A stretch of DNA of 64,000 nt, taken from a virus. Lineage: Duplodnaviria > Heunggongvirae > Uroviricota > Caudoviricetes. Below are positions 8,344 through 41,675 of the stretch, in pieces. The notes beneath the pieces are model-generated. The model was given only the letters and a program-made list of their open reading frames with translations, had not been told where the DNA came from and ran no database searches. The position numbers and the translations under genes are program-made. The stretch lies in IMG/VR virus record IMGVR_UViG_3300029998_000014. The stretch is one strand, 5' to 3'. Each line of letters starts with the position of its first letter. Positions within the stretch are counted from its first letter, which is position 1.

Positions 8344-11300
8344 ATGATACAAAGCAATATACTATTAACAGATATTGTAATTCCTACAGTAGATAATTTA
8401 ATAGTAACTGATGTACCAGATGAAGTAACAGTTAAAGATAGCGATATTATATCAACTACTTTAACTGTTACTTTATTAAATTCTGAATTCATTCAACATG
8501 AATCTCAGAATAATCCATCATTATTAGATTTGAATACAACAGAATTCAATAATCTTTCAAATGAAATAGTAGTAACACCTACTATACAAAATAATGGGAT
8601 GTTATTAAATACTGATATTCCGGTATACGATAATGCAGTTCCTACAGATTTATCATTGAATACTAATTCACCAAGTAATAATGATGTATTAGGATCATAT
8701 GAATCTGTAAATGCAATCCCAAGTATCACACCAGGATCTGGAAGTTTATTTCCATCCGATCCAACATTACTTCCTCAAATTAATAGTTTGTTTGAATTAT
8801 TACAATACTTATCAGAAGTAATGATGAGATTTAATAGTGACCCAAATTATTATATGCAAGATGATTTTGCAATATTAGTTAAAACGATTACTAATGCTTT
8901 GATTCATTTATATTTAAATGCTCCATTATCTACTGGAGAAGTAGAAGGATTATATGCAGCATTAGGAACTAAAGTTGATAAAATTCTCGGAAAAGGATTA
9001 AGTACTAATGATTTAACAGATGAATTAAAAGCTGCTTATGATTCCGCGTTCTTAGAAACACATTTACATAGTAATAAAGCAGCATTAGATTTAGTAAGTG
9101 GTAAGAATACTGGAGATCAAGATTTATCAGTATTACAACCAAAAGAAACTGGAAAAGGATTATCTACTAATGATTTTACTAATACATATAAAAATAAATT
9201 AGATGGAATTCAAACTGGAGCAGAAGCAAATGTAAATGCTGATTGAAATGCAACTAGTGGAGATACTTTAATATTAAATAAACCTAATATTCCAAGTATA
9301 ACAGGATTAGCAACTGAAACTTATGTTCAAAATTATGCAGAACCTAAAAAAGGAACTGATGATAATTATGTAACTGATTCAGAAAAGACAAATTTACATG
9401 CACCACATAGTGATGATCAAGATCTATCTGGATTAGTTGTAAAAATTCCTGGATATTCTTTAGTATTAAATGTAGATATTGCTAAAATACACGTAGCTCA
9501 TAGTGATGATCAAGATTTAACACCTTATGAAACTATTGCTAATAACAATATTAAATTAGCTACTAAAGAACCAGCTAATGCTAATATACAAGCTCACATT
9601 ACTAATACAAATAATCCTCACTTTACAACTAAAGCACAAATTGGATTAAGTCAAGTAGATAATACTAGAGATATAGACAAACCTATATCAATCTTAACTC
9701 AATTAGCTTTAAATACTAAAGAACCTAATATAACATCAGGATTAATTACTGATTACTGAAGAGGTGATAAAACATTCCAACCTTTAAATAAGGCTGCTGT
9801 AGGTTTAGATAATGTAGATAATACATCAGATTTATTGAAACCAATATCTACTGCTACACAAAGTGCATTAGATTTAAAATTAGATGTATCATTAAAAGGA
9901 GCTAATAATGGATTGGCAGAACTTGATTCAAATGGCTTTGTAAAAAATTCACAATTACCATCTTATGTAGATGATGTATTAGAATATACTTCTATAAGTT
10001 TATTTCCTACAGTTGGAGAATCTGGTAAGATATACATAGACACAACCACTAATTTAACTTATAGATGAGGTGGAACTACTTATGCTATTATCAGCTCATC
10101 TTTAGCTTTAGGAGAAACTTCAGCAACAGCATATAGAGGAGATCGTGGAAAAATTGCTTATGATCATTCACAAATAAATAGCGGTAATCCACATGGATTA
10201 ACTTTATTAGATATTGGAGCTCAAGCTCAATTAAATGGTACTGGTCTAGTTAGAATGTCTGGAACTTCTATTACTTATGATAATACATCATATGTTTCTG
10301 GAACTCCATGAACATCAGTTGGATATTGATACTCAGGTAGCCATCCTACCACAACTAGTGGATATGGTTTACCAGATTATCCTACAACTTTACCAGCTAG
10401 TGATGTTTATTCATGAGCTAAAGCTTCTACAAAACCAAGCTACGCTTATTCAGAAATAACTTCTAAACCTACATTATTATCTCAATTTACTAATGATTTA
10501 GGTAATTATGGTTCATTTGTTACTGGTACTCCTTGGACTGGATATGGATATCTTACTGGTATAACTGGAACTCAAGTTACTACAGCATTAGGATACACTC
10601 CCTATAATTCTACAAATCCTAGTGGTTATATTTCTAGTATAACTAAATCCCAAGTTGAAGGAGTTCTTACTGGACTAATAACTACTCATACACATAACTA
10701 TTTATCTAGTTTTACTGAAACTGACCCTATATTTATTGCATGGAATAAATCTACTGGCATAAGCATTACTAAGTCGCAGGTTAGTGATTTTCCAACTAAT
10801 CTCAGTCAATTTAATAATAATCTTGGTAACTACGGTGGATGGATAACTGGTATCAACTCAGGAATGGTTACTACTGCTTTAGGTTATACTCCACTACCTA
10901 CTAGAACATTCGGTTCAGCAGCCAGTAGTAACACTGGAGACTTTGTATCTTCTAGTGGGACTTTAGGCTCTAGTATAACACTAGGAACAGTATATAATGG
11001 AACTGCTAATCAATCCGTACCTACTAATTTACTAGGAGGTTACTCTAACGGATATGTTTATAATTTTACACAAAATCAAATACAATCTTGGTTAGGTCTA
11101 GGTTCATCGGCTTATACCAACAATAACGACCACATATTAAACCAAAATAGCTCTGCACAATCTGCAAATATGTGGATTAGTGGGGATGTTACAGCGTATG
11201 GAAAAGGCAAATTTGGTGTAACATATCATAGTGTTGAATTAAGAGCATTGGATTCTGATTATGGTAGTGCTATGTACTTATATGCCGATGGTGGAACTGA

Positions 11301-13083
11301 CCAAAGAGTTTATAGAATTGCCAACAAATACAGTGGAAGTGGTACTGATTTAGTAATTGATTATTCTGATGCTAGAGCATACAATACAGAAGCTATTGCA
11401 CATACTTATACAGAAAGATTTAGGTTAAGTAAAACAGGAGCAGTAACTTTTACTTCTACAGTAAATGCAACTCAACTACAATCAACAGTAGCAACTGGAA
11501 CAGCACCATTAACTGTAAATTCTACTACTATGGTGGGGAATTTGAATGCTGAAATGGTAAATGGTTTAAAATACTATGGCGCTGATTTTGCGTCTACGGT
11601 AAGTTATGTAATGGTATACGATGCCCCTAATGCTAGAATGAGTCCTGCTACTAGTACTCAAATTAGAAATTTTATTGGCGTAAATAATATTGCTACACAA
11701 GATTTATCAAGTTTATCAACAAACTACATTCCTAAATGGAATGGGAGTAATTTTGTAAATAGTTTGATAAGTGATGATGGGACAAATGCATCAGCTAGAG
11801 GTGATTATTTTGCTATTAATATACCATCTAATAATTATTCAGGTAAATTAAAATTTGGTTCAGGTTCTTCTTTTGACTATTTTATTAGTAGTGGAGATAA
11901 TTATGGGTCAATGATTTTTAATTCTGTTGGACAGTGGGGAAACAAAGCCTTTACTTTTAATTATGCAACTACTCCCTTATTGACTATTGAAAGTAATGGA
12001 GTAGTAAGTATACCAAACACAACTCAATCACTATCACCATCAACAGGAGCATTAGTTCTTAATGGTGGGATGGGAATTAACGGAAGATTATCATTGCCTA
12101 GCGGTTCAGGTTGGGTAGGAATGTTATCATTTGACCATAATGTATCTAATGGTAGTTCTAGGAAATGGTTCATACATACAGATTATCAGTCTTATGGAGA
12201 TTTTGCAATTACTACTCAATCAACCCAAAGTGCTAATACAGTACCCGATATTGGGAGGTTTTATATTAGCCCTAATGGTAATACTGGGATTGGATATATT
12301 TCTGACCAAGGGTATAAGTTGGCAGTGAATGGTACTTTAATGGCAACTGGAACTGTTAATACTTATGCAGGTGAGGGAATAAAAATGATTGCTGATGCCG
12401 CTTATTTGAGTGGTTATAATTCAGCAAATACAGTTAGACAAGGTTACTTACAGTTTACTGGCAATGCAGTATATATTAGTGCTGAAAGTGGAACAGGTGA
12501 TATTGCTCTAATTAACAAAAGTGCTGTGCTAATTAGAAATGATGTTGGAGGTGAGGCAAGAATACAATTACAAGGTTCACAAGCAGGAGTTAAGCAATAC
12601 TATATTAAAAATTCAATACAAGGAATTTCAAACACTGGATTTTCAATTAGAAATGCTTCCGATGGTACAACTCCATTTTATATTGATGGAAGTGATAATT
12701 CTCATTTCAATGGTAATGTTACTGCTAGTAATTTTATTTCAAATGGAAATGTAATAGCAGCGGGTGAAATAGTAGCTTATAGTGCATCTGATGAACGGTT
12801 AAAAGAAAACATTCAACCATTAAATAATTCTTTGGACGTAATCAATAAATTAAATCCAGTGCAATATAATTGGAATGAAAAAGCTAAAGAATTAAACCCA
12901 AATAAGGATGAAAAAACAGATGTTGGTGTTATTGCTCAGCAATTAAAAGAAGTACTTCCAAACCTAGTACATAACATTTATAACGATGAATTTTTATCAG
13001 TTGATTATATCAAGTTAATACCATATTTAATCGGAGCAATTCAAGAACTAACACAAGAAATAAATACTTTAAAAAATAAATAA
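8344..13083 (+). CDS. Long tail fibre / receptor-binding protein with C-terminal peptidase S74 chaperone (1579 aa; crAss N-terminus + shared module + siphophage C-terminus)
   Basis: One frame through ORFs 8344, 9835 and 10864. Fibre repeats GKGLSTND x2, HSDDQDL x2, VDNTxDxxKPxS x2. Ends SDERLKENI...LNPVQYNWN...IAQ. Confidence 0.85.
10795..12739 (+). repeat. Direct repeat copy 1 (1,945 bp, tail-fibre segment)
   Basis: Matches 39456-41400 at offset 28,661. The track gives identical small ORFs at 12131/40792 and near-identical ones at 12539/41200. Sequences diverge just outside both ends. Confidence 0.97.
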
Positions 13084-13084
13084 T

Positions 13085-17380: not shown

Positions 17381-17875
17381 TTAGTCTTTATATGTTTTGT
17401 AGTTGATAATATTACTTACTGATGATAAACAAATATTAAACATATCTGCTATTTCCTTACGAGTATGTGTATTATTACTTATTCATTCTCTTATTTGATT
17501 AGCATCAGTATTAGTTAACTTTGATCGTCTTGATCTTTCCCCTTTAGGATTGATTGGTGTTAGTCCTGTTCTAAAGGCGTGTTTAATATTATCTATATTA
17601 CTTAGTCATTCTAAATTTTCAACTGTGTTATCTTCTTTAATTCCATTTATATGATTAACTGTTAGTGTTGTATCATTGGTTCATATAAACGCTTCTGCTA
17701 CTAATCTATGTACTCTCATAGATCTTTTGTGTCCGTTGCTTGAAAGATTAAGTACTCAGTAGCCGTCTTTATCTGGGTGCAACTTCATTATCTTTTGTGT
17801 TCTTAAATTAAATACTACACCTGTGTTACTTATGGTGTAGTTTGGATAGTTTGCAATTGTTTTTACTTCTCACAT
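17381..17875 (-). CDS. NUMOD4-HNH endonuclease (164 aa)
   Basis: YPNYTISNTG...RVHRLVAEAF...VNHINGIKEDNTVENLE-W. The canonical ENLEW Trp is TGA, and codon 2 is TGA. Confidence 0.85.
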
Positions 17876-18622: not shown

Positions 18623-18652
18623 TATAACCTACTGATTTACAATTAATTGATA

Positions 18653-18702
18653 ATACGTACAAAAACAATTGAACGCTTGCGGTCAATTTCTATTGTACGT
18701 AT
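18653..18702. other. Putative attP of the large serine recombinase
   Basis: 50-bp imperfect inverted repeat: ATACGTACAAaaacAATTGA-acgcTTgcgg-TCAATTtctaTTGTACGTAT. Symmetric about TT at 18677-18678, 44 bp upstream of the integrase. Confidence 0.65.
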
Positions 18703-18723
18703 CATAAAATAAATATATCTTTG
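18692..18723 (+). promoter_or_regulatory. Bacteroidota-type promoter of the integrase (-7 box TATCTTTG), overlapping the attP right arm
   Basis: TAnnTTTG at 18716-18723 and ATTG 20 nt upstream. Confidence 0.6.
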
Positions 18724-18746: not shown

Positions 18747-20468
18747 ATGAAAAAAGCAGCTATTTATTTACGAGTTTCTACTACAGATCAAAATTATGAA
18801 CGTCAAGAAGTAGAATTAAGATTGCTTGCAAACGGTTTTGGTTATGAAATAACTAAAGTGTTTGAGGAAAAAGCATCTGGTGTTTTAGATATGGACACCA
18901 GAGAGCAATTAACAGAAATGCGAAAATTAACTAGTGATGATGTTGATAAAATATTTGTTTGGGATATATCCAGATTAAGTAGAAAAGCATCAGATTTTAT
19001 TGCATTAGTAAATGAATTTGCAGAAAAAGGTGTTTGCATTCATTTTAAAGATAAGAATATTATTACTTTAGATGATGATGGTAAAATATCGGGTGTTGCA
19101 TCTATATATTTATATATGTTAGGTGTATTTGCTCAAATGGATGCTGAGAATTTAAAATCTAAATTCAAATCTGGTAAAGAAAATGCACTTAGAAAAGGTC
19201 ATAGTTATACTAATAATGCACCTTTTGGATATGATATTATTGATAAGTATTTATATGTTAATGAGTTAGAAGCAGAATCTGTAAAATTAGCATTTGATCT
19301 ATTTCATTCTGGTAAAGACACACAATATATAGCAGACATATTTAATTCAAAGAATATACCTTTAAAGAGTGGTAAAACAAATATTATCTGGGTAAAAGGC
19401 ACAATTTATCAAATGCTCAAAAATCCTGTATATTATGGCAAAGGTAAACTAGAATCAATAACTAAAAAAGCAACTGCAACTACACCTGCTGAAAAATCAG
19501 TAAGATATTTTGATGTTGATGCTATTATTGAAAAGAATTTGTTTGATGCAGTTCAAGAACGGTTTACAATTAATATAAATAGTGGTGATAAGAGTAAAGC
19601 AGTAGACCCCGCAATATTAAGAGGTATTTTAAAATGTGGTCAATGTAATAAATACTATGTTTTAGGTAATAATAATGGTGTAAGGGTCTATAAAGATGGT
19701 GATATTAGAGCCAATATAAACAACAAAGTAGGTTGTAAAAATGGTAGTTTCACTATTACAATGGCAGATAATTTAGTTTGGACTGCTATTAAAGGTATTT
19801 ATGAATATGATTCATTTAAAAAGAAGTGTGTAGATGATAAAGAACAATCTAAACTTGAATTGATAAAGAATGAAACTACATTAACTGAACTGAATAAAAA
19901 CATCACTGATTTAGATAATCAAATTTCTAAAGTTAATACTGGATATGCTAAAGGGTTCTATAATGATGCTGATGCTTTAGAACAAAAACATAGAATCACA
20001 ACCGAGAAAGACAGATTTAATAAAATTATCACAGAAATACAATCTAAAATCATTTTACTAAATGATAGAATTAATTCAGAATTTGAGTTTGATTATTTAA
20101 AAACTAGGGAACTAAGTTTAGAAGAAAAGAAACAGGTTTGTAATAGTTTAATTGAGGTGGTAAATGTATATAGATATACTGATTATATTAAACTGATGCA
20201 GGTAAAACTAAAAGTAGGGTTAACATTCAATATCCTTTTTAATAGTCAATACAAAGTAAATTCATATTGTATTATTGATGATGATGATGTAACATTTAAT
20301 AATATTTTTAATGCACCAGAAGAAGTTAGAGAGATTTTAAAGGGTAAAGATTTTACAGTTACTTCTTCAAATAATAAGCTGTTTAATGATGAAGTATTTG
20401 GTGAATATAGTTATACTGATATTTGGGAAATAATGAAGAAATACAACTATTTAAAGAAAATAGATTAA
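18747..20468 (+). CDS. Large serine recombinase (integrase)
   Basis: AAIYLRVST catalytic Ser motif, DISRLSR, recombinase domain, CGQC zinc ribbon, coiled coil; 573 aa. Four Trp, all TGG. Confidence 0.92.
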   Translation: MKKAAIYLRVSTTDQNYERQEVELRLLANGFGYEITKVFEEKASGVLDMDTREQLTEMRKLTSDDVDKIFVWDISRLSRKASDFIALVNEFAEKGVCIHFKDKNIITLDDDGKISGVASIYLYMLGVFAQMDAENLKSKFKSGKENALRKGHSYTNNAPFGYDIIDKYLYVNELEAESVKLAFDLFHSGKDTQYIADIFNSKNIPLKSGKTNIIWVKGTIYQMLKNPVYYGKGKLESITKKATATTPAEKSVRYFDVDAIIEKNLFDAVQERFTININSGDKSKAVDPAILRGILKCGQCNKYYVLGNNNGVRVYKDGDIRANINNKVGCKNGSFTITMADNLVWTAIKGIYEYDSFKKKCVDDKEQSKLELIKNETTLTELNKNITDLDNQISKVNTGYAKGFYNDADALEQKHRITTEKDRFNKIITEIQSKIILLNDRINSEFEFDYLKTRELSLEEKKQVCNSLIEVVNVYRYTDYIKLMQVKLKVGLTFNILFNSQYKVNSYCIIDDDDVTFNNIFNAPEEVREILKGKDFTVTSSNNKLFNDEVFGEYSYTDIWEIMKKYNYLKKID

Positions 20469-25636: not shown

Positions 25637-25896
25637 AATTATTTGATTTTGATTAGACTACAAAATTACAACAATTTCTTAACATAAAAACTATAAATAC
25701 TATTTATGTGTAAACATAGTAATGAGGTAGTTATGAAGCTAACTTATATGTTATTTATTTGAGTGATTAATTGATTTTATATGTTTAAGAGTGCTTACAA
25801 TTAATATTTTAGATGTTGATTATTTTTATAAATTTTGTGTTACAGTCTTGAAGTTTATATCTTTATGAGTATAACAACACAAAAACACAAAATAAT

Positions 25897-26277
25897 ATGA
25901 AATGACAAATACCAAAGGATATTGAAAAAGATGCTACTGTTTATATGCAGGATGTATTATCTAAACTAGAATCTAGTGGAATACTAGAAGAAGTTGATAG
26001 TGCTGCACTAACTATGTTAGCTCGTAATTATTCAATGTTTATAAAGGCTTCTAAGCAATTAGAAAAAGATGGTTTAACTGTCGAAAGTGATAGAGGTAAT
26101 ATAGCACAACACCCATTAATCAAGGTGGCTAAAGATGCACAAACACAGGCTATGAAAGTTATGTTAGAATTTGGACTAACTGCAAAGGCTAGAACCAAAC
26201 TAATACAAAAAGATAATGAAAGCGATGAGGATTCACCATTTGAGCAATTTATAAAACAAGGTAAAGAAACGAGGTAA
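25897..26277 (+). CDS. terS: Terminase small subunit, P27 family
   Basis: DSAALTML...DGLTVESDRGNIAQHPLI...FGLTAKAR. The start MK-W uses TGA at codon 3. Confidence 0.85.
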
Positions 26278-26279
26278 CA

Positions 26280-27893: not shown

Positions 27894-27903
27894 CATAATA
27901 CAA

Positions 27904-29142
27904 ATGGCATTTAATGACTGATTTAAAAAGAAATCAACACCTGCACCTATAACAGAAAAAAGAAGCTTTTTTGATTCTTTGATGTATAATTCACAAAGTG
28001 GTTATACAACTAACAAAGCTATGCTTCTACCTGCTGTTTATAGATGTGTAGAAGTGATTAGTGATTCTGTTGCACAATTACCTTTAGAACCTTATTTAAT
28101 TGACAATAACGGTTATAAAACAAAGCATAAAACACACCCAACATACAGACTTTTAAATAGTGAACCGAACAATAAAATGAGCAGGTTTACTTTTATGAAA
28201 ACATTAGTTCAAAGTGTACTTTTAAAGGGTAATGCTTATGCTTATATAGAAAGAGATCGAAGCGGTAATGTAATAGCATTGCAATTTATAGATAGTTCGT
28301 GAGTAACAGTAGTTACAACAGATATACAAAATAATAAATTGATGTATTCAATTACTGGTTTTAATGCTTTAGTAGAGCCTATTAATATGATTCATATACT
28401 AAACTTTAGTTATGATGGTATTCGTGGAATAAGTACACTGGAACACGCAAGGTTAACACTTGGGTTAGCTACAGATTCAGAAGCACACGCAGCAGGATTT
28501 TTTAAAGGTGGTGCTAATTTAGCAGGTATTTTAAAAGTTGATGGTTCACTACTTCCAGAACAAAAACAAGATTTAAAAGCAGCTTGACAAACTTCATTTA
28601 ATGCTTCTACTGGAACACCTAACGGGATAGCTGTATTAGAAGGTAATATGAATTTTCAACCTATAACAGTTAGTCCTGTAGATGCACAACTTTTAGAAAC
28701 AAGACAATTTAATGTAATTGATGTTTGTAGATTCTTTGGTGTTTCACCAATGAAATGTTTTGATCTTACACAAGCTAATTATGCAACTGTAGAAGCTACA
28801 CAGTTAGCATTCCTCACAGATACACTTTCCCCTTTATTAGAAAAGATAGAACTGGAATTTGAACGCAAACTATATAAACCATCTGAACGAGATACTATAG
28901 ATGTTAGATTTGATACTTCTGTTTTATTGAGAGCCGATAAAGTATCACAAGCAGAGTATTTTAATAAGCTTTTCCAAATTGGTGTAATGACAGTTAACGA
29001 AATTAGAAAGGAATTAGATTTACCTGCTATAGATAATGGTGATAATAGTTTTGTACAAGTAAATACTATTACGCTGCAAAATGCAGTAAAAGAAACACAA
29101 ATTGTAAATACACAAAAAAATGATGGAATTACGAAACAGTAG
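27904..29142 (+). CDS. HK97-family portal protein (412 aa)
   Basis: AVYRCVEVISDSVAQLP, QLLETRQF, GVMTVNEIRKELDLP. Three TGA join three track ORFs. Confidence 0.92.
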
Positions 29143-29671
29143 TTGAGAATTAAGAACTACAGAAAACAGCAGAACCGTAGAAGGGTATGCTTTAAAATTT
29201 AATAAAGAATCTAGGGATTTAGGGGGTTTTGTTGAGGTTATAGAACCAGAAGCATTAGATGGTATTTTAGAACAATCTGATATACTTTGTTTACTAAATC
29301 ACAGTGAAGATAGAGGTGTTTTGGCACGCTCAAAATTTGGTGTTGGTTCATTAAAATTAGAAGTTGATAATGTAGGTTTGAAATACAGATTTGAAGCACC
29401 TAACACTTCACTAGGTGATGAACTTTTAGAAGGTTTAAAACGTGGTGATATTACCACTTCAAGCTTTGCATTTACTATTGATAGTGATGTATGGGAAAAA
29501 AGAAGTACTGGTTATCTTAGAAAGATTACAAAGTTTAAACAAATTTTTGACGTTTCACCAGTTTATAAAGAAGCCTATCCAGACACAACAGTAGCACTTA
29601 GAAAAATGAATGATTTGAATACAGAAGATTTATCTGGATATTATAAAACCTTAAAAAACAAATTAAACTAA
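29123..29671 (+). CDS. HK97-family prohead protease
   Basis: VEGYALKFN...SRDLGGF...LLNH...SSFAF...DVSPVYKEAYPDT. TGA at codon 8. Confidence 0.9.
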
Positions 29672-30864
29672 TGAAGAACACACTAGAGTTATTAGATGAT
29701 AAAAATCTATTAAAAGTAAGAGCAACAGAATTAATTTCTAATGCTGAAAAAGAAACTAGAAAACTTAACGATTTAGAAAGTATTCAATTTGATGAAATTA
29801 CTAAAGAGTTAGCAACTATTGATGCTGAGATCAGAAAGATCGAAGAAGATAATAAAAGAAACCTTAATAAAGTAACAACAAAACAAAAACAAACTATGGA
29901 AAATTTTTCATTATTGAAAGCTATTAATGATGTAGCTAACAACCGTCAACTAGACGAAAGAGCATTAGAAATTACTAACGCAGGGCAAGCTGAATTTCGT
30001 AAAGCTGGACAAAACACACAAGGTCAAATTGTATTACCAATGGAAACCAGAGCAACAATTTCTGCAACAGTAGCAACTGCTGGACAAGAAGTAGTAGCAG
30101 AAGATAAACTTGGAATTTTAGAACCTCTTAGAGCTAATCTAGTAATGGTTCAAGCTGGTGCAACATATATGACTGGTTTAACTGGTACTGTATCTATCCC
30201 TGCTTATTCTGGATCAAATGTATTGTGAGCAGGTGAAACTGCTGGTGCATCAGATGGTGCTGGTTCATTCACAGAAGTAACTTTAGAACCAAAAAGAATC
30301 ACTGCATTTTTAGATATTTCTAAACAGTTCTTGATTCAAGATTCAATTAGTGCTGAATCAATGCTTAAATCTGATATTGTAAAAGCAATTTCAAACAAAT
30401 TAGAATCGACTGTATTAGGTTCTGTAGCTGGTTCTACAACTCAACCTTCTGGACTTTTATATGGTACTCCTGTTGATACAGAAGATGTAAGTTATTTAGA
30501 AGTTGTAGCTATGGAAACAATATTAGAATCTGCTAATGTAACTGGAAAGAAAACGTTTATCGTTTCACCATCTGCAAAAGGTAAATTTAAATCAACTCTT
30601 AAAGCAGCAGGTGTTGCAGCAGGTTATTTAATGGAAGGAACAGAAATTAACGGCTATAATACTTTGTCAACTTCTGCTGTACCTTCTAAAGGTGTAATCT
30701 TTGGATGTTTTGAAGATTATGTTATTGGACAATGGGGTGGAATTGACTTGACAGTTGATCCTTACACACAAGCAGCTAATGGTAAAGTTCGTTTAGTAAT
30801 CAATGCTTATTTTGATGCTAAACCTCGTAGAAATGAATCTTTTATAACTGCTATTTTAAAATAG
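29671..30864 (+). CDS. HK97-fold major capsid protein (397 aa)
   Basis: Delta-domain coiled coil, VL-W-AGE (TGA), LEPKRITAFLDISKQFL, GQWGGIDLTVDPY. Confidence 0.9.
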
Positions 30865-30874
30865 TCTATAATAT

Positions 30875-31183
30875 ATGTATTTAACAATCGAACAAGCTAA
30901 AAAACACTTGAATCTGGAAGCAGAATTTATTGAAGATGATATTTATATCACTTCACTAATTCAAGTGGCAGAAGCAACTGTTGAATTACATATAAATCAA
31001 AAATTAGTTGATGTTGCTGCAATTAATGGTGAGGTTCTACCCTTGCCATTATTGCACGCAATGCTTTTAATGATTGGTAATTTATATGCAAACAGGGAAA
31101 TGATAAGTTTTGCAAGTAAAACTACAGAAATACCTTTTAACTATAGATACCTTTTAGATTTTTACAAAAACTATTCAAACTAA
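30875..31183 (+). CDS. Head-tail connector (gp6-like)
   Basis: AKKHLN...DDIYITSLI...AMLLMIGNLYANRE. Confidence 0.85.
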   Translation: MYLTIEQAKKHLNLEAEFIEDDIYITSLIQVAEATVELHINQKLVDVAAINGEVLPLPLLHAMLLMIGNLYANREMISFASKTTEIPFNYRYLLDFYKNYSN

Positions 31184-31189
31184 ATTTAT

Positions 31190-31510
31190 ATGATACCAGC
31201 GGGAACACTGTTATATAGTTTAATATTTAAAGAAAATCAAACTGTACAATCTGAATCGGGAGCAGTTACAAAACACTTAACTGAACTACTTAAATGCAGA
31301 GCAGCTAAAGTTAAACAATCTGGTAATTACTCATTAGATTCTAAAGAATTATTTCATAGTAATACAATAGCTTTTAAGATTAGATATAATAAACTATTAT
31401 CTGAATTATTAATTGTTGAATATGAAAAGAATGATTATAAAATAAACTCTTTTGATAGAAATCTATTTGATAATTCAATTGATATTATACTAGAAAAAAT
31501 TAATAAATAA
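31190..31510 (+). CDS. Head closure / head-tail adaptor protein
   Basis: AGTL start, FKIRY motif, synteny. Confidence 0.75.
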   Translation: MIPAGTLLYSLIFKENQTVQSESGAVTKHLTELLKCRAAKVKQSGNYSLDSKELFHSNTIAFKIRYNKLLSELLIVEYEKNDYKINSFDRNLFDNSIDIILEKINK

Positions 31511-31511
31511 A

Positions 31512-31949
31512 ATGGAAATTCAAACTACATTAATTGATTATGATCGAGTTTACAAAGCTATTGATAATCTAAAGGATTTTCAAAAAGATAAAGTTGTAGG
31601 TCAAGGTTTAAAAGATGCAACAGGATTGTTTATTAATGCAGGTAAACAGAATCTAAGAGATAGAATGAAATCCAAAAAAGGTGATTCTGGTAATTTATTG
31701 AAGTCTTTTAAAAACAAACTAAAACGTTCAAGTTTAGGAGCAATTGCTGGATTCAATCAATTAGGTATGCACGCACATCTTTTAGATATGGGTACACAAG
31801 TAAGAACTACTAAAAGTGGAGCAAACAGGGGGAAAGTAGAAGGTAATAGTTTCTGAAAAGATGCTATTGAATTAAACGAAACCGCTGCAATTGAAAAAGT
31901 TTATAGTGGTATTGAAAGAGCAATTACAAACATAATTAATAAAGGGTAA
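31512..31949 (+). CDS. HK97 gp10-like neck protein
   Basis: HAHLLDMGT motif, extends past F-W (TGA 31854). Confidence 0.7.
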
Positions 31950-31950
31950 G

Positions 31951-32343
31951 ATGATTACAAAAGCATTTACAAAATTTTCAATTACAACAGAATTAAGAAA
32001 ATTAATTGTTGCAGATAGTGGTCTAACTAATTGAGTAGGTACTAATGTATTTCCAATAGTTGCACCAGAAGGAACAGAAGGCGATACTATAATTTATTAT
32101 AGGGAAAAGTACGCTAAACAACACACTCAATTTGGAATTTATGAGGAAAAATGTAATGTTACTTTTATAATTGTTTCAGAAGATTATGACAGAAGTATTG
32201 CAATAACAGAAGCCTTAAATGATTTAATTGAAGGTATTCACCAAAATAAAGACAACTACAATTATGAATGTAGATTAGTAGATTCAATTGAGGATTTAAT
32301 AGATAAAAAATATATTCAGACTTTACAGTTTGAAATCAAATAA
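31951..32343 (+). CDS. Tail completion/terminator protein
   Basis: VFPIVAPEGT motif, synteny; missing from the track because of TGA. Confidence 0.65.
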
Positions 32344-32365
32344 CAAACAATAAAACAAAATAAAA

Positions 32366-32809
32366 ATGTCAACATCATATAATTCAAATACCGATTTAGT
32401 AAAAGGTAATAACTTAATGTTATTTGTAGGCTCAACACCTATTGCATTTGCAAAAACTTGTGATTTATCAATTAGTGCAGCATCAATTGATACAACTAAT
32501 AAAATGTCAGGAAATTGAAAAGCTAGTTTAGCTGGACAAATTTCTTATACAATTTCATCAGATTTTTTATATACAACTGTAGCGGGTGATACTTCATTCG
32601 ATACTCTTTTAGCTAGTCAAATAGCAGGTAGTTCTGTTAGTTTTACAATTGGACTTGCAGATCCTGCAACTTTTGCATTAACTGGAACAGGTCTTTATAC
32701 AGGAACAGCACACATTACATCTTTAACTATGAAAGCAGAAGATAATGCAATAGTATCTTGTTCTGTATCTTTAGAAGGTTCTGGTGCTTTGGTTAAAGTG
32801 TCAGCGTAA
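32366..32809 (+). CDS. Major tail (tube) protein, TP901-1-like
   Basis: KGNNLML...IDTTNKMSGN-W-K...YTGTAHITSL...SLEGSGAL. Confidence 0.8.
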
Positions 32810-32824
32810 TAAGATCAAAAATTT

Positions 32825-32850
32825 AAAAGGCGGTGATTATACCGCCTTTT
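32825..32850 (+). terminator. Intrinsic terminator
   Basis: AAAAGGCGGT-gattat-ACCGCCTTTT. Confidence 0.75.
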
Positions 32851-32871
32851 GTTTTAAATTCAAATTGATAT

Positions 32872-33510
32872 ATGAATATAAAATTAAACATTAAAAGTAT
32901 CATCAAATTTGAACAGTTTACTAATAAATCATTCAATGAAATAGACTATACAAATACAGATGATTTATTGAAATTGATGTACTGTATAGTACTTTCAAAC
33001 AATCCAGATGTATTTACTTATGAAGAGTTTTTAGAGCTAATAAAGAGTAAGAAGATAAGCAAAACCATTTCGGATAAATTAAGCACAGAAATTAAATTGA
33101 TAGATTTATTTGCAAATAAAGAAGTAAAAGAGGTTACAGAAGAACAACCAGAAAGAGAAGTAATATTTATAAAAGATATAGCTGCAATACTAGTAGTGAA
33201 TGTTGGATTGGATATAAATTTTGTAATGAATGAAATGAGTATAAACGATATTTCTTTATATATGGAAGCCTATAATAAGAGCGTGAAGCAACAAATGGAA
33301 AGTAGCAGACTATGAACTTATTTATCTGTTATACCTCACATAGACACCTCAAAAATAAATAGTCCTTCTAAATTTTATCCTCTACCTTGGGAACTTGAAA
33401 AACAATTAGAACAAGATAAAACAGAGTTCAAAATTATGGCTGAAGAACTTCCAGATATGTTTAAAGCTGGTGCAGATCTAATTGATAAAATAAATAAACA
33501 AAAACAATAA
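32872..33510 (+). CDS. Tail assembly chaperone
   Basis: Lies between tail tube and tape measure; SRL-W-T...PLPWE C-terminus after TGA 33313. Confidence 0.65.
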
Positions 33511-33514
33511 TAGT

Positions 33515-36500
33515 ATGGCAAATAATTTAAGTTTTGGGGTAGCAGTAAATCTACTAACAGAAAATTTTAAAAGAGGTCAAGCACAAATTCAAAACGGTTT
33601 TAGAGAAATAAAATCTACTGCTTTACAAATGGCTGGTGTACTTGGTGCAGGGCTAGGTTTTGAGCATATTATAAAGGAAATGATAACTGTTGCTAGAGAA
33701 TCAGCAGCAGTTAACAAGGCTTTAAAAGTGGCTTCTGGTGGATGAGAAGAATACGGAAAGAATCAAAAATATATAATTGAAACTAGTGAGAAGTTTGGTT
33801 TAAGTATAAACGAAATGACTGGTGCATTTGCAAAGTTTACAGCATCTGCAAAAACTAGTAATATCCCTTTAAAAGATCAGCAAACATTATTCACCGGATT
33901 AAATGCTGCATTGTTAGCAACAGGTGCAAGCGGTGATAAAAAAGCAGAAGTTTTTGATGCTATGTCAAAGATGATGCAAAAGGGTACAATTCAACTCAAA
34001 CCCTTAATTGCTGGGCTTGGTTCTGCTTTACCAGAATCACTTTCAATTATGGCTAAAGCTATGGGTGTATCAGTTGAAAAACTGAGAGATATGGCTAAAC
34101 ACGGTCAATTATTAGCTAGTGATGTATTTCCTAAATTTGGTGCAGAACTAGAAAAAGCATTTGGTAATGTTGACACCAATACAATAGGTGGTGCTTTAAA
34201 TAGAATTGGTAACAGTTTTGAAGAACTAACAGCTAAATTAAATGTGGGTAACATTTATAAAACTATAGTAAATGAAACTTCTGAGGTTTTTAAATGGATA
34301 ACCGAACACTTTAAATTAGTTGGTGATACTATTACAAATATAGCAGTAACTATTATTGTAGGTAAAGCTTTTGGAGCTATTAAAAAAGGTTACACATCAA
34401 TATCAACAGCAGCTACTACTAGTTACGTTAAACAGGCTGTAGAAGCAGAAAAAAGTGCAGTTGTACAGGAATTAGCAAATAGTAATTTATCTAAGAAATC
34501 TCAAAAAAGATATTTAGATGAATCACTTGCAGCAGCAAAATCTTATGCTGAACAAGAAGCAGCAGTAAACAAATTTAGTTTAACCTCTAATTTCGCTTTT
34601 AAAACTGTAGGTTTAGCAATTAAAACTGCTTTTATGTCATTCTTACCAATGATATTATTTAGTGGTGCAATGGCAATATATCAACACTTTTCAAATCTTG
34701 CAGAGAAAGCTAAAGAACTAAAAGCAATTTGAACAGATTATAGATCTGGTTTAAAAAATGCAGTTGAAACAAACAGTCAATCAAACGAGATTAAAAACTC
34801 TTTGAAGATTGTAAATGACACTAATACTTCATTAAAAGAGCGTCAAACTGCACTAAAAACAATAAATTCTATTTTAGGTACTAATTATCAATTTGATAAA
34901 AACGGCTTAAAAATCAACGGTGATATTAACGTAAAAATCAAAGAGCGTTTAGACCTCTTAGATAAACAAAGCAGGTATCAATATTTACTAAATAAACAGA
35001 ATCCTAATGATGATAGAATTGCCGAAACTCAAAGTAAGATTGATATAATTAATAATCAGTTAGGAAAAGATCTTAATAGTGGCAAAGGTGTAGATAGTGG
35101 ATTAGTAAAAGAAAGAGCTGGTTATTTAGATGAACTAACACCTCTATTAAAAGTTAGAGATGATATAGCTAGAGAAAAGAACAAATTAAAATCTGAACTT
35201 GGTAAAAATACAGGTGAAACAACCGATACTAATTTAAGTGGTTTAGGTGCTGGTTCTGGTGAAGATACTGAAGTACAAAAACATCAAAAAGAAATTGATT
35301 CTGTACAAGATGCTTATGTAAAAGAAACTCAAAAACTAAATAATGAATTAGCTAACGGTGTAATATCACAAAAGAAATACAATGAATTATTTGATAAGCA
35401 CGTAGAAGATGGTAAAAAGAATTACGGCGGAATCTTAACGAAAGATGAAGCTAAAACTAATGTTATTTATGGACAAATTCAAGCCTATAAACCATTATCC
35501 TCTACTGATGATAAAATTGAAACAGCTAAAGAAGATTATCTTAAAAAACTAACTGAACAAGACGGATATTTAAAAGATGGTATAATCACACAAGATGAAT
35601 ATACTAATGCTATGTCTGGTATTGTTGATGAAACATTAAGAACTATTTCAACAATCAAAGGAGTAAATTTTGCGACTAATGATTTAGTGAAAATAGTAAA
35701 ACAGAAACAAGCAGATTTAGCTAAAAAAGATTTTGCTTTTGTACTACCTCAGAGTAATCCAATAGATCATACATTTGATTATAAAAAGTCAGATGTTGAA
35801 AAACAAGAGGATAAAAATCAGCAAAATGACGATTTTATAAAAGCCATTGAAAAAGAATTTAGTGATAAAGGTGTAAAGAATATTGAAAAACAAATAGCTG
35901 ATGCGGGTGGTGATCTAAGTAAACTAAAAGCACAGTTTCACGGTCAAGCAGATGATTTAATTGAATCACTAAATAAAGCATTATTAAATGCACCAGACTT
36001 GTCCAAAGCATTAAAACTAATGCAGGTTAAGAAGGATATAAAAGACCTACAGAAACAATTAAATAGTGGTATATACGAGGGTATAAAAAATATTGCTGGT
36101 AGTGCTAAAAATATGTATGAAGGATTTAAAGCATTAACTGATACACTTAATAATGTAGATGCTTCTGGATTTGAAAAGTTTCTAGCAATATGAGATGCAT
36201 TAACTAATACGCTGGATGGTATAATGTCAGTTGTAAAAACTATTAAAGACCTTACAGCAGTAACCACTGCTTTGACAGCAGCAAAACAAACACAAGCAGG
36301 AATTGAAGCGGGAACAGCAGCAGCTAAAATTGCAACCAATGTTGCAGAAACAGCTTCTTATACTGGACTTATGGCAGCAGAAACAGCAGCAGCTTATGCT
36401 TTTATTCCCTTTGTAGGTGAAGGTTTAGCATTGGCTCAAATTGGAGTAATGCAAGGTGCTATATTAGCTTCAAGTATTCCAAAGTTTGCAAACGGTGGTA

Positions 36501-36727
36501 TTGTACAAGGTGGTTCTATTTCTGGTGATAAAATACTAGCTAGAGTAAATGCTGGTGAAATGATATTAAATCAAGGTCAACAAAGTACACTATTTGCTCT
36601 TTTAAATGGTCAAGGTGGTATAAATTGAACTACAACAAATAATAGTGAAGTAAAATTTATTATTGAGGGAAAGAATTTAAAAGGCGTTCTAACTAACTAT
36701 GATAATATAAAAAGCAAAGCAAAGTAA
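33515..36727 (+). CDS. Tape measure protein (1070 aa)
   Basis: Joins four in-frame track ORFs. Tape-measure domain and PKFANGGIV...GDKILARVNAGEMILN C-terminus. Confidence 0.88.
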
Positions 36728-36728
36728 T

Positions 36729-38843
36729 ATGATTTACACAGGACAATTTAAAAATATAAGTAACACTTTATATCAAGTGGATATAAATGTGAATGATGGT
36801 AATAGTGGAACATCTGAGATTATTTTCTCAGATGAACCATTTAAAATCGAATTAAATACAAATAGTACAATTTACGAACCGTTGAAATTATCAAATGCAA
36901 CTTGTACAATTATATCTGATAGTTACAATTTCAACCTTTATTCAGCAACTGCACAAGGTACTAAAATGACTTTGAAAGATGTTGATAATAATCTGATTAA
37001 ATGAGTTGGTTACTTGACACCAAACATATATACACAAGGCTTTGAACAACATTATGAAAGTATTGAACTTGAAGCAATAGATGGTTTGAGTACATTAGAC
37101 AATTACAAATTTGAAACGGTTGATCTGGTAAACAGAAAGATAAAAAGCTTTGAAGATTTATTGATTCATATCATCAAAAAGTGTAATTGCTATTCTAAAA
37201 TATACGTGAATGAAAACAACTATTTACCGGGCTTTGAAGATCAAAAAATCATAGATAAATTACTCGTAGCTGAGCAAAATTTCTTTGATGATAACGAAGC
37301 AATAACATACAAAGAAGTACTAACACAGCTTCTTCAATTCCTAAACTATACAATTGTAGCAGATGGTGATGAGGTTTATATATTGAACTATGATTATATA
37401 AAAGGTGGATTTGTAAACTATCATACCTATACTACTGCAAACAATTGGTTGAATTATTCAACTGGCTACACAACATTAAGTAATACAGTAGATGTTACAA
37501 ATGAAAGTTTTAAATCGAATGGTGCTAGTATTGAATTAGCTGAGGTTTATAATCAAGTAAGCATTAAAACCAGTGTAAGCACAAATGATAGTTTGATACC
37601 AGAGTTTTTTTCTGATGATGATCTAACCAACATTACAAAAGTAACAGGAACAACAAACTGGTTTTCTTCTATTCCTAAAACTTATGGAAGTAAGAACTAT
37701 GTGTTTAAATATTTCAAAAATGATAAATACAAAACATATAATAAAACTGGTGGTACTTGGTCTGAATTAACCGAACTTGATTATGATACAATATCAACTA
37801 AAGAGGGTGCATCCTTTGTAAGAATGGCAAACTATGAAAATAATGTAGCATTAAGTTCTTCTGTTAGTTTCTCTGATTATGTTTGTCTTTATAGGTCTGG
37901 ATATGTTGCACCAACTGGCGCATTACCTTTACAAACTTGGCTTGACTGTACAAATAATGTTGTACTGAAATATTCATCAAGCAATGAGGGTAGTTATTTT
38001 TATGATGATTACTATTTAATAATTAGTGGCTCTGCTTATTGGGATTCAGCGGTTAATGTAGCTTATATAGATGAAAGTAAAAAAGCATCTACAGGTGATT
38101 ATTATTTATCAACTTACGTATTATTATATGCAAAATTAAAGATCGGAAATAAATACTGGAACGGTTATCAAAAGTATTGAACTAATATTGAAATGACTTT
38201 CCCAATTAAGTTTGAATACAAAGATGGACATCTTTATAACAACTGGAAAAACATATTAAACGAAGTTGATACAACAGCATTTATAAATGAAGTTGGTAAT
38301 AAAATAACCATTAAAAAGGCAGATATGTTATTCGGTGATATTGAGTTTTCATTATATGAACCATCTGAAATATATAAGGGTGGTACTTGTGGTGCTGTAT
38401 GATTGAAAGATTTTGACATCAAGTTAGTTAAACCTACAAGTGAGAAAAAAGCGGAAACAGATACAGAATATAAAAACGTAATCAATACAGCGTTTGTAAA
38501 TGAATTTTCTGATATGAATTTAAAAGTATGTAGTGATACAAATAAAGGATTGAATTATTCATCTGTTATTCAAAAAATAGGTACAGATTATACATACAAT
38601 CAAAGTATCAAAACAAAGGCTTTAGGAATTGACCAGAAACAAGAATACAACATTATCCAGTCTTATGTGAATCAGTATTCAACACCAGCCAAAAAACTAA
38701 ATATAACGCTGGCTAATATATTTAAACCGTATTCATTACTAACAATAAATAGTATTTTTCCAACTGAAAAATTTATTGTTGATGGTATGAGTATAGATAT
38801 AAAAAATGATACTAATCTATTGAATATAGTATCAAAGAAATAA
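36729..38843 (+). CDS. Tail/baseplate hub protein (704 aa)
   Basis: Joins four in-frame ORFs; position between tape measure and fibre. Confidence 0.7.
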
Positions 38844-38870
38844 CAGAAACAACAGTAAAACAATAATAAA

Positions 38871-41675
38871 ATGGAATTTCAAAGTAAAAATATAGCCTTA
38901 CAAAGAGGTTCAACAACTACTGCTATTAATAATTATAGTTCTGGTGGTTCTGGTAGTGCTTATGTACCACTTAATTATTTATCATTAGTAGCACAGTCAA
39001 CTAATTTGGCTGGTGCTAATGGTGTGATAAAATTACCACTTTCTAATTATTTGTTAACCGATAATGGTTGAAATTTTTCAACTGTTAATACAGATGGAAC
39101 ATTCACTGATTTAATGACTTTAGATAGTAATGGTAATTTATCTGTTAAAGGTGAAGTTTGTGCATTTGGTGTTACTTCTGGTGGTTCTGGATCTGGTGGA
39201 CTAATACAAACAGTATTCGGTTATGCTAATTTAGGTGGTTCTTTCAGTAATGCAACATTAACTGATACATTCAATGCCTACACAATCAATCAAATGAATA
39301 ATAGATTGATTGGTGTTGAGAATGGAGCATTAACACAAATTAGTTCAACACTTGTTACTAATGCTTTGGGATATGTACCTTATAATTCAACTAATCCAAA
39401 TGGTTTTATAACTGCAAGTAGTTTAGCACCTTATGCATTGACAGCAGCAAGACCTACTAATCTCAGTCAATTTAATAATAATCTTGGTAACTACGGTGGA
39501 TGGATAACTGGTATCAACTCAGGAATGGTTACTACTGCTTTAGGTTATACTCCACTACCTACTAGAACATTCGGTTCAGCAGCCAGTAGTAACACTGGAG
39601 ACTTTGTATCTTCTAGTGGGACTTTAGGCTCTAGTATAACACTAGGAACAGTATATAATGGAACTGCTAATCAATCCGTACCTACTAATTTACTAGGAGG
39701 TTACTCTAACGGATATGTTTATAATTTTACACAAAATCAAATACAATCTTGGTTAGGTCTAGGTTCATCGGCTTATACCAACAATAACGACCACATATTA
39801 AACCAAAATAGCTCTGCACAATCTGCAAATATGTGGATTAGTGGGGATGTTACAGCGTATGGAAAAGGCAAATTTGGTGTAACATATCATAGTGTTGAAT
39901 TAAGAGCATTGGATTCTGATTATGGTAGTGCTATGTACTTATATGCCGATGGTGGAACTGACCAAAGAGTTTATAGAATTGCCAACAAATACAGTGGAAG
40001 TGGTACTGATTTAGTAATTGATTATTCTGATGCTAGAGCATACAATACAGAAGCTATTGCACATACTTATACAGAAAGATTTAGGTTAAGTAAAACAGGA
40101 GCAGTAACTTTTACTTCTACAGTAAATGCAACTCAACTACAATCAACAGTAGCAACTGGAACAGCACCATTAACTGTAAATTCTACTACTATGGTGGGGA
40201 ATTTGAATGCTGAAATGGTAAATGGTTTAAAATACTATGGCGCTGATTTTGCGTCTACGGTAAGTTATGTAATGGTATACGATGCCCCTAATGCTAGAAT
40301 GAGTCCTGCTACTAGTACTCAAATTAGAAATTTTATTGGCGTAAATAATATTGCTACACAAGATTTATCAAGTTTATCAACAAACTACATTCCTAAATGG
40401 AATGGGAGTAATTTTGTAAATAGTTTGATAAGTGATGATGGGACAAATGCATCAGCTAGAGGTGATTATTTTGCTATTAATATACCATCTAATAATTATT
40501 CAGGTAAATTAAAATTTGGTTCAGGTTCTTCTTTTGACTATTTTATTAGTAGTGGAGATAATTATGGGTCAATGATTTTTAATTCTGTTGGACAGTGGGG
40601 AAACAAAGCCTTTACTTTTAATTATGCAACTACTCCCTTATTGACTATTGAAAGTAATGGAGTAGTAAGTATACCAAACACAACTCAATCACTATCACCA
40701 TCAACAGGAGCATTAGTTCTTAATGGTGGGATGGGAATTAACGGAAGATTATCATTGCCTAGCGGTTCAGGTTGGGTAGGAATGTTATCATTTGACCATA
40801 ATGTATCTAATGGTAGTTCTAGGAAATGGTTCATACATACAGATTATCAGTCTTATGGAGATTTTGCAATTACTACTCAATCAACCCAAAGTGCTAATAC
40901 AGTACCCGATATTGGGAGGTTTTATATTAGCCCTAATGGTAATACTGGGATTGGATATATTTCTGACCAAGGGTATAAGTTGGCAGTGAATGGTACTTTA
41001 ATGGCAACTGGAACTGTTAATACTTATGCAGGTGAGGGAATAAAAATGATTGCTGATGCCGCTTATTTGAGTGGTTATAATTCAGCAAATACAGTTAGAC
41101 AAGGTTACTTACAGTTTACTGGCAATGCAGTATATATTAGTGCTGAAAGTGGAACAGGTGATATTGCTCTAATTAACAAAAGTGCTGTGCTAATTAGAAA
41201 TGATGTTGGAGGTGAGGCAAGAATACAATTACAAGGTTCACAAGCAGGAGTTAAGCAATACTATATTAAAAATTCAATACAAGGAATTTCAAACACTGGA
41301 TTTTCAATTAGAAATGCTTCCGATGGTACAACTCCATTTTATATTGATGGAAGTGATAATTCTCATTTCAATGGTAATGTTACTGCTAGTAATTTTATTT
41401 TATCGTCAGATAGAACTTTAAAGACTAATATTCAACCAATCATTAAAGACTATAGTAGGCTCAATTTAGTTTCATTTAATTTTAAAAATAACTTAGAAGA
41501 ATTAAGATTTGGTACTATTGCTCAAGATTTATTATCTAATGGATTTAGTGAATTTGTAGTTGGAAATAGAGAGGGTGAATATAAAGTAAAATACATTGAC
41601 TTGATAATAGCAAAACTTGCTAGTGCTGAATCAAGAATAAAACAATTGGAGGAAAAGTATGTCAGTTCCAGATAA
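38871..41675 (+). CDS. Tail fibre with C-terminal S74 chaperone (934 aa; siphophage N-terminus + shared module + crAss C-terminus)
   Basis: In frame across TGA 39069. Ends SDRTLKTNI...FGTIAQ. Confidence 0.85.
39456..41400 (+). repeat. Direct repeat copy 2 (1,945 bp, tail-fibre segment)
   Basis: No differences from 10795-12739 seen by eye. Confidence 0.97.

Follow-up and report, generated by a model that had tools for sequence, protein, structure and literature searches.

The window, by which we mean the whole 64,000-nt stretch of viral DNA that was analysed, contains a direct repeat, R, which lies within a tail-fibre gene of a Crassvirales-like phage and brackets a complete 28,661-bp temperate siphophage of the HK97 type (Table 1). 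In an offset scan, the two copies of R formed one exact 1,945-bp run with 100% identity, and identity dropped at once to background (about 0.3) outside both of its ends. The copies are spaced 28,661 bp apart and enclose a unique inner part of 26,716 bp; R itself has a GC content of 34% and encodes its tryptophans with seven TGG and no TGA codons. Offset scan and gene content together bear out the order given in a preliminary description of this DNA, namely crAss-left, R, siphophage, R and crAss-right, with an R of 1,945 bp.

Table 1. Features of the window, with the evidence for each
Feature	Coordinates	Strand	Evidence or description
crAss-like left arm	1..10794	+	PHROG, tblastn, Pfam
R copy 1	10795..12739	+	648 codons of fibre shaft and distal domain
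Siphophage unique part	12740..39455		Gene content
Siphophage-native S74 chaperone end (predicted)	12740..13083	+	Pfam match about 12787-12972, 69.8 bits
AlaX-like (tRNA_SAD) gene, phage copy	18170..18622	-	60% identical to the host gene split by integration
attP	18638..18717		39-nt imperfect inverted arms around central TT 18677-18678
Large serine recombinase (integrase)	18747..20468	+	PHROG_95; Resolvase and Recombinase Pfam domains; codon counts
Siphophage packaging, head and tail genes	25813..38843	+	Gene content
Siphophage fibre N-terminus, 195 codons	38871..39455	+	53% identical to the fibre start of siphophage relative L018
R copy 2	39456..41400	+	Identical to copy 1
crAss-native short S74 end (predicted)	41401..41675	+	Pfam match about 41406-41534, 32.6 bits
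crAss-like right arm	41401..64000	+	Gene content, including Pfam domains

The left arm carries a homing endonuclease, a TerL gene (751-2859), a portal gene (3079-5274), a gene for a Fib_succ_major protein (6843-8321) and, at its end, the N-terminal 817 codons of the fibre gene, which starts at 8344. TerL and portal match PHROG families, and in tblastn searches the TerL matched ICTV Crassvirales genomes at 27-30% and MT835470 at 44%. Encoded on the right arm are a second Fib_succ_major protein (41659-42762), a lysin (43074-43589), a crAss capsid protein (Crass_capsid, PF23898, at 44768-46198; 48 bits against a cut-off of 27), a muzzle protein (crAss_MUZ, PF25731, at 55601-59860; 71 bits) and homing endonucleases. 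With capsid, muzzle, TerL and portal all found, the outer arms are, on gene content, those of a Crassvirales-like phage. The Pfam matches place Fib_succ_major genes on both crAss sides of the fibre, which we counted in favour of two separate replicons. Neither part had a close relative among GenBank phages by megablast, so an empty site was not obtainable from that source.

The genes of the inner part run in the order lysis, alaX-like gene, attP, integrase and replication (minus strand), and then from TerS to tail. The packaging, head and tail region encodes TerS, TerL, portal, S78 protease, capsid, tail tube, tape measure and a 704-aa distal tail protein; the phage further carries a lysin, a serine integrase and a replication module. 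A complete packaging, head and tail module, together with an integrase with Resolvase and Recombinase domains, marks the inner part as a temperate HK97-type siphophage.

The window is coding only when TGA is read as tryptophan, with 89% of bases in long ORFs as against 56%. In TerL homologues TGA aligns with W, F or Y; a reading of TGA as glycine (code 25) was rejected on these alignments. Codon counts show no in-frame TGA in the integrase gene, and the genes that adjoin it are likewise free of in-frame TGA, while the lytic and structural genes of the siphophage use TGA as Trp. The host region uses the standard code.

In the assembly, the fibre ORFs at 8344-13083 (1579 aa) and 38871-41675 (934 aa) are both open and end just past R in a predicted Peptidase_S74 domain (PF13884; Pfam cut-off 22 bits), so that the junction fibres are in-frame chimeras with S74 ends, as had been claimed. 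Rejoining the parts of each lineage predicts a native crAss fibre of 1556 aa (8344-12739 plus 41401-41675) and a native siphophage fibre of 957 aa (38871-41400 plus 12740-13083). Both parental fibres were observed. The protein P0005 (1556 aa), encoded on a 13,073-bp JGI contig, matches the predicted crAss-R-crAss splice with 0 mismatches, and P0007, which was present on 9 contigs, matches the predicted sipho-R-sipho fibre with 0 mismatches; in stand-alone siphophage contigs it is the siphophage S74 end that follows R, as part of P0007. The fibre module common to two unrelated TGA=Trp phages is real. P0005 is the fibre of the empty site that the preliminary description had proposed to look for, present in another assembly on one contig. 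This is the single contig from which the crAss-R-crAss pairing is known, and its assembler may itself choose paths. A search with the crAss-R-crAss fibre of IMG/VR and of a metagenome contig collection that excludes these peat contigs returned distant relatives only, and exact-match queries with P0005, with P0001 and with the crAss-R-crAss fibre in its 716-aa table-11 form recovered no recorded gene.

The assemblies compared consist of short-read contigs, and at 1,945 bp R is longer than any k-mer. All four flank pairings of R are present among other assemblies of the same peat campaign. The chimeric pairings are commoner in database contigs (7+1 and 5+1) than crAss-R-crAss (1), and crAss-R-sipho as well as sipho-R-crAss contigs are found repeatedly, in several samples. 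The siphophage was also observed by itself as a circle with a single R. The JGI contig Ga0302272_1000201 measures 28,788 bp (28,661 + 127), i.e., a full turn with a k-mer overlap; k141_611055, at 28,926 bp, is one turn plus 265; and the MEGAHIT contigs L003, L013 and L016 read sipho-left, R, sipho-right. In ERZ27248528 the siphophage forms a full circle and the crAss arm is a 1.2-kb fragment. Other contigs break about k-1 bases within the edges of R: L010 (MEGAHIT, 174,982 bp) stops at 10935, L011 stops at 10921, L006 (100,160 bp) begins at 41274, and L004, at 26,970 bp, is the unique part of the siphophage plus 2 x 127. Contig ends in these positions are expected from a branch in the assembly graph.

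The siphophage also occurs as a whole prophage within a Paludibacter-like chromosome. This integrated form was recognised from the unaligned tail of JGI contig L015 (29,000 bp, or 28,661 + 339), in which the phage sequence crosses the TT of attP into a 215-nt host tail with 96.3% identity to a Paludibacter sp. MAG. The other half of attB is held by a contig from run X23, as a 24-mer with a single exact match among GTDB genomes. The two halves directly adjoin in one gene of one Paludibacter sp. MAG, with the empty attB at about position 7228 of L078. Both junction halves of a recombination between chromosomal attB and attP at the central dinucleotide were found, and the attP/attB pair of the siphophage is validated against its host junctions. 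The host is a Paludibacter-like member of the Bacteroidota, and the target of integration is an AlaX-like gene. In the window attP is intact, and the host-phage junctions in the X23 and L015 contigs fall exactly there; the integrase, as had been argued from the intact site, did not create the junctions at R. A look-up of the integrase by itself found no host-flanked context. Among 151 genomes of the family of the Paludibacter MAG, the siphophage TerL had distant matches only (at most 34% identity), so these genomes offer no related prophage for comparison. The crAss-like phage may also infect a Paludibacter-like host, as suggested by the common fibre module.

The preliminary description had proposed a single crossover between a siphophage circle and a crAss genome, and had asked for the depths of the two parts to be compared. 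Depths were taken from the Logan contigs of four runs and were unequal in all four, with the siphophage deeper each time and a varying siphophage-to-crAss ratio of 1.4-3: 86-102 against 55-64 in X6, 25-26.5 against 15.5 in X11, 18-20 against 6.7-8.7 in X16, and 13-20 against about 7 in X23. This inequality excludes a cointegrate only as the exclusive form; a siphophage whose depth exceeds that of the crAss arm in 4/4 runs is also what a cointegrate accompanied by free or integrated siphophage would give. The depth of R equals the sum of its flanks in X11 (40.6-42.8) and roughly equals it in X6; X16 and X23 do not follow this pattern, and a cointegrate plus free phage predicts the same sum. All 18 runs in which the crAss arm is strongly represented are also recorded as containing the siphophage or were shown to contain it, which again fits a cointegrate. 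Runs X23-X31 had been considered as containing the siphophage without the crAss-like phage; this was dropped, since X23 has crAss-left at about 7x. In X23 only the crAss right arm seems absent, and a contig crosses the R/sipho-right boundary unbroken.

In X11, stretches of at least 669 and at least 1,008 nt of R show no differences at 31-mer resolution and stand at the summed depth, which suggests recent or continuing exchange. Variant patches within R are indicated in the Logan contigs of three runs, and the polymorphic patches span 11137-11731; the depths of one of these, at 11553-11712, agree with the crAss arm in X11, and to some extent in X6, whereas those in X16 do not. The breakpoints of the fibre variants fall at a conserved module joint.

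Our results suggest that the nest is most likely the path of an assembler through a 1.9-kb fibre segment of two separate peat phages, and that the nested genome is probably not a real molecule. For the full explanation, in which two co-occurring replicons with a common R were joined by an assembly walk, we estimate a probability of roughly three in four (0.77). The first replicon would be a large crAss-like phage of about 176-185 kb, recoded to TGA=Trp. The second is a 28,661-bp temperate siphophage, whose large serine recombinase directs its integration into an AlaX-like gene in a Paludibacter-like host of the Bacteroidota. Both fibre genes would carry R, a 1.9-kb shaft and distal module that is identical or nearly so between them, set between N-termini and S74 chaperone ends that are specific to each lineage. 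In a short-read graph the two genomes would then form a figure of eight that meets at R, and the contig of the window would be a walk through crAss-left, R, the siphophage loop, R and crAss-right, with the two copies of R identical because they represent one collapsed edge. The nest itself would not be a major molecule, and recombination during infection of lysogens by the crAss-like phage may maintain the identity of R. The possibility that an assembler had joined two genomes through a repeat longer than the insert size was already raised in the preliminary description, and every new observation is as it predicted. From the same description the geometry, the chimeric fibres, the intact attP and the common module stood, but its headline, a phage-in-phage cointegrate, gained no specific support, whereas the parental forms were documented directly.

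A real cointegrate of about 213 kb, formed by a crossover in R and present alongside free and integrated siphophage, is nevertheless the alternative that survives best. Perfect homology over 1.9 kb would recombine in any cell where both phages replicate, the two chimeric ORFs remain open and terminate in S74 domains, and the chimeric contigs recur in several samples. However, the same assembly graph yields each of these observations, and those of depth and co-occurrence, without a cointegrate. A genome that is 15% oversize would also have to fit a crAss-type capsid, and base-identical copies of R are given by a collapsed edge, while variant patches in R are indicated in three runs. As short reads look alike for a cointegrate with free siphophage and for two genomes sharing R, we regard the cointegrate as unlikely rather than refuted. 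Improbable to a somewhat greater degree is a real and recurrent nest that unites a lytic crAss-like phage with a temperate siphophage sharing its host, receptor-binding module and code, in which the siphophage, showing no suppressor tRNA, would need the tRNA-Trp(UCA) of the crAss-like phage for its TGA-containing lytic genes, and a crossover in R would couple the two and lend the crAss-like phage an integrase and attP. Real but low-frequency recombinant junctions, arising between an infecting crAss-like phage and the integrated prophage or as transient intermediates, so that the chimeric pairings are not a heritable nested genome, would fit the integrated prophage in a presumed common host, the identity of R in X11 and the breaks at the module joint, yet they seem very improbable, and the common host is presumed from the fibre module only.

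The mosaicism of P2/Mu/lambda-type tail fibres, reportedly described by Haggard-Ljungquist et al. in 1992, is the older example of host-recognition modules common to distantly related phages. In Alteromonas phages, a tail fibre and its chaperone are common to distantly related phages (PMC10579305). As in such cases, the segment observed here is common to morphologically unrelated phages, with sharp intragenic boundaries and joints at conserved linkers. The partners differ, being a crAss-like phage on one side and a small temperate siphophage on the other, each reading TGA as Trp, and so does the extent of identity in the assembly (100% over 1.9 kb, unlike the Alteromonas or P2-type cases). Unlike in the Alteromonas phages, the S74 chaperone ends are not common; each lineage has its own. 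Chimeric contigs are known to arise from viruses that occur together and have closely similar regions (benchmark PMC5610896), and Phables uses graphs to untangle such genomes (PMC10104058). Here too a repeat longer than the library insert joins genomes, and assemblies vary in their pairings or halt at the repeat; what sets the present case apart is that the loop walk yields a tidy insertion, leaves two chimeric genes open and mimics a biological cointegrate unusually well. Prophages with recoded stop codons that reside in standard-code hosts, such as Garnet and Topaz, and crAss-like phages recoded at TGA have been described (bioRxiv 10.1101/2021.08.26.457843), as have TGA-recoded Zeta crAss-like phages (PMC12386605). 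The siphophage resembles Garnet and Topaz in its TGA-free integrase region, its TGA=Trp lytic and structural genes and its standard-code host region, and the large crAss-like phage resembles its recoded counterparts. In contrast to them, the siphophage shows no suppressor tRNA, and the habitat is peat rather than gut.

If true, a cointegrate would offer lytic crAss-like phages a new way to acquire lysogeny functions and to swap host range. At present the case serves chiefly as a warning: a looped walk through a common 2-kb module can mimic a clean insertion in a contig of more than 200 kb. Because such a walk can leave open chimeric genes, records of this kind should be split before genome size, lifestyle or host are called. 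The common module is real, as is the temperate phage, which works in a Paludibacter-like host, but both are of a known kind. The by-products, each also of a known kind, are a receptor-binding module found in peat in both a crAss-like phage and a temperate siphophage, an attP/attB pair validated for a serine integrase, and a Paludibacter-like host for a TGA-recoded prophage and, presumably, for the crAss-like phage.

An offset scan of the window found a sole exact run of 1,945 bp, the repeat R (10795-12739 = 39456-41400), with identity falling to background within a few bases outside both ends. The copies are spaced 28,661 bp apart, with 26,716 bp of unique DNA in between, and their GC content (34%) is slightly above that of the surroundings. 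Both fibre ORFs are open as assembled (1579 and 934 aa) and each terminates, directly past R, in a Peptidase_S74 domain (Pfam, 69.8 and 32.6 bits). The layout and the in-frame chimeric fibres with S74 ends in the preliminary description were therefore accurate. The phage-in-phage cointegrate proposed there is unlikely and unproven, as flank pairings, contig breaks and unequal depths fit a figure-of-eight graph joined at R. With a probability of roughly three in four, the nesting of the siphophage within the crAss-like fibre gene is an assembly path and the record consists of two genomes.

The runs holding window DNA are peat metagenomes. Exact-protein look-ups in other assemblies found all four flank pairings of R: sipho-R-sipho (fibre P0007, 957 aa; 9 contigs read), crAss-R-crAss (P0005, 1556 aa; one contig of 13,073 bp), crAss-R-sipho (P0001 and P0004, 1579 aa; 7 and 1 contigs, the longest of 213,486 bp and presumably the one from which the window derives) and sipho-R-crAss (P0008 and P0010, 934 aa; 5 and 1 contigs). 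The predicted splices match P0007 and P0005 with 0 mismatches each. P0005 is the fibre expected at the empty site that the preliminary description had sought; its pairing comparison, made here on assemblies, yields the parental and the chimeric forms alike, as contigs. MEGAHIT does not resolve repeats by read pairs. Its path from the left siphophage flank (~39.2 kb) through R to the right (~13.0 kb) is unbroken in three ENA assemblies (L003, L013, L016), and crAss-side contigs end about k-1 bases within R (the 174,982-bp L010 ends at 10935, L011 ends at 10921 and the 100,160-bp L006 starts at 41274). The stand-alone siphophage closes on itself in contigs of 28,788 bp (28,661 + 127) and 28,926 bp (28,661 + 265), and its unique part forms a 26,970-bp contig (26,716 + 2 x 127) in one sample. 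Such breaks and pairings are what a graph shaped like a figure of eight, with R as its junction, produces: a single walk round the loop gives the exact layout of the window, with R copies identical by construction.

Depth was taken as the k-mer depth carried by Logan contigs in four runs. The left crAss arm, siphophage and R stood at 55-64, 86-102 and 126 (3' part of R) in X6; 15.5, 25-26.5 and 40.6-42.8 (the sum) in X11; 6.7-8.7, 18-20 and 20.7 (3' part) in X16; and ~7, 13-20 and 13.1 in X23, where R runs unbroken into the right siphophage flank on one contig. R thus matches the sum of the two parts in X11 and roughly in X6, but not in X16 or X23. ENA sample ERZ27248528 contains the siphophage as a closed circle and the crAss arm as a 1.2-kb scrap. 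As the crAss:siphophage ratio is not 1:1 and varies among runs, a cointegrate as the sole form is ruled out. A nested genome existing as an actual molecule beside extra siphophage would give the same unequal pattern: the siphophage is deeper than the left crAss arm in 4/4 runs, the sum rule for R is expected under both models, and all 18 listed strong crAss-arm holder runs are also listed as, or shown to be, siphophage holders. Such a molecule, which would exceed the crAss genome (213,486 bp less 28,661 bp) by about 15%, keeps a small share of the probability for these reasons. Low-level recombinants as the only such molecules are less likely still; transient ones may well form, but a propagating nested genome stays hypothetical. 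The record is best handled as two genomes, and what would keep its value is the fibre segment common to both phages, together with the attP/attB pair and the host assignment.

On gene content, the inner 26.7 kb and a single copy of R together make up a complete HK97-type temperate siphophage. Its head and tail set (TerS, TerL, portal, S78 protease, capsid, tail tube, tape measure and a 704-aa distal tail protein) precedes the fibre and an M15 lysin, after which come a large serine recombinase and a minus-strand replication block. The attP site, between the AlaX-like and integrase genes, is a 39-nt imperfect inverted repeat with a central TT at 18677-18678. An X23 contig has 24 foreign bases directly ahead of 18676, with one exact match among 185,579 species genomes (calculated chance expectation ~0.004), a MAG labelled uncultured Paludibacter sp.; the match falls in a host 163-aa tRNA_SAD gene (L078:7062-7553), 60% identical to the phage copy. 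A 29,000-bp JGI contig (L015, Ga0311332_10000162; 28,661 + 339) leaves phage DNA at the attP TT and continues for 215 nt that match the neighbouring half of the MAG gene at 96.3% identity, so that attL and attR have both been seen, and it carries the entire prophage with a single R and a 957-aa fibre. The siphophage is thus an autonomous temperate phage of a Paludibacter-like host, integrating at the attP TT; its integrase, as first proposed, did not make the R junctions. The integration point is the conserved HIERKKSKC motif of the host AlaX-like gene, and the full-length phage homologue beside attP presumably replaces the split host gene.

The shared fibre module is real and mosaic. Two mismatch-free R contigs in X11 (10864-11532 and 11732-12739) at summed depth indicate that both phages carry these segments. 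A crAss strain variant (L008, JGI 3300029981) equals window 377-11136, spanning the crAss-left/R boundary unbroken, which places the start of R at home in the crAss lineage; it departs at 11137 and rejoins at ~11712-11830. L018, a relative of the siphophage assembled from a different sample (tape measure 59%, 704-aa protein 61% and fibre N-terminus 53% identical), shares distal R at an amino-acid identity of 87% and then has a differing C-terminus, which assigns distal R to the siphophage lineage. In L008 and L018 alike the switch falls at a conserved motif, LGLGSSAYTN..NQNSSAQSANMWISG (window 11089-11184, fibre residues ~916-947), likely a recombination joint of the module. Logan contigs also contain a replaced patch within R (11553-11712; X6, X11 and X16) and a third, far deeper sequence across the crAss-left/R boundary (~10776-10857; about 450-490x in X6), suggesting that parts of the gene also occur in additional fibre haplotypes or in a third abundant phage. 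Hence, the two phages may carry differing copies of R in some samples. Host-recognition modules common to distantly related phages are well documented (PMC10579305), and R resembles them. Most likely both phages infect the same Paludibacter-like host, as attL and attR show for the siphophage and as the shared distal fibre, with the range of Bacteroidota hosts known for its order (PMC7886860), suggests for the crAss-like phage. Recombination at the conserved joints probably swaps fibre modules between the two; infection of lysogens by the crAss-like phage would provide the occasion and would keep R homogenised.

Features of the two phages in the window
Feature	Coordinates	Strand	Evidence
TerL, crAss arm	751-2859		PHROG family match
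Portal, crAss arm	3079-5274		PHROG family match
Crass_capsid	44768-46198		Pfam
crAss muzzle protein	55601-59860		Pfam
GIY-YIG or HNH homing endonucleases (several), crAss arms	2-772, 47219-48112, 52877-53821, 61076-61723		
AlaX-like gene, siphophage	18170-18622	-	tRNA_SAD domain
Integrase (large serine recombinase)	18747-20468		
Two paralogous HNH/NUMOD4 homing endonucleases, siphophage	17381-17875, 24263-24754	-, -	
Terminase, siphophage	26280-27893		

The window is coding only with TGA as a sense codon (89% vs 56% of bases in long ORFs), and no gene within it ends in TGA. Homologues of the two terminases have W, F or Y opposite the TGA sites, which indicates that TGA is read as Trp and rules out Gly. 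The lytic, replication and structural genes of the siphophage (12740-39455) use this code; in-frame TGA is absent from its integrase, its AlaX-like gene and 13085-14119. Trp codons are 7 TGG and 0 TGA in R, 6 TGG and 0 TGA in the siphophage genes after it (12740-14119), and 2 TGG and 6 TGA in the crAss fibre N-terminus. The block 10795-14119, R plus the 1.4 kb of siphophage sequence after it, thus has 13 TGG and 0 TGA; in this it differs from the N-terminal fibre parts of both phages, and it may originate from a standard-code lineage. ARAGORN and Rfam found no tRNA in the window, and the host region around attB (43% GC) reads normally in table 11, so that translation of the late siphophage genes would need an outside or undetected suppressor. 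TGA-recoded crAss-like phages, and recoded prophages whose integrases are stop-free and whose hosts use the standard code, have been described (bioRxiv 10.1101/2021.08.26.457843; PMC12386605).

By their gene content, the outer arms are those of a Crassvirales-like phage, whose TerL gave tblastn hits at 27-30% identity in ICTV Crassvirales genomes and at 44% in MT835470, the unclassified record of a gut phage. Fib_succ_major domain proteins flank the fibre gene on both crAss sides (6843-8321 and 41659-42762), as would be expected if the arms adjoin each other in nature. For both terminases, the closest relatives in the databases belong to a single human-faecal virome study (75-81% to MT835917 and MT836675 for the siphophage), so kin of both phages are present in that gut data set too.
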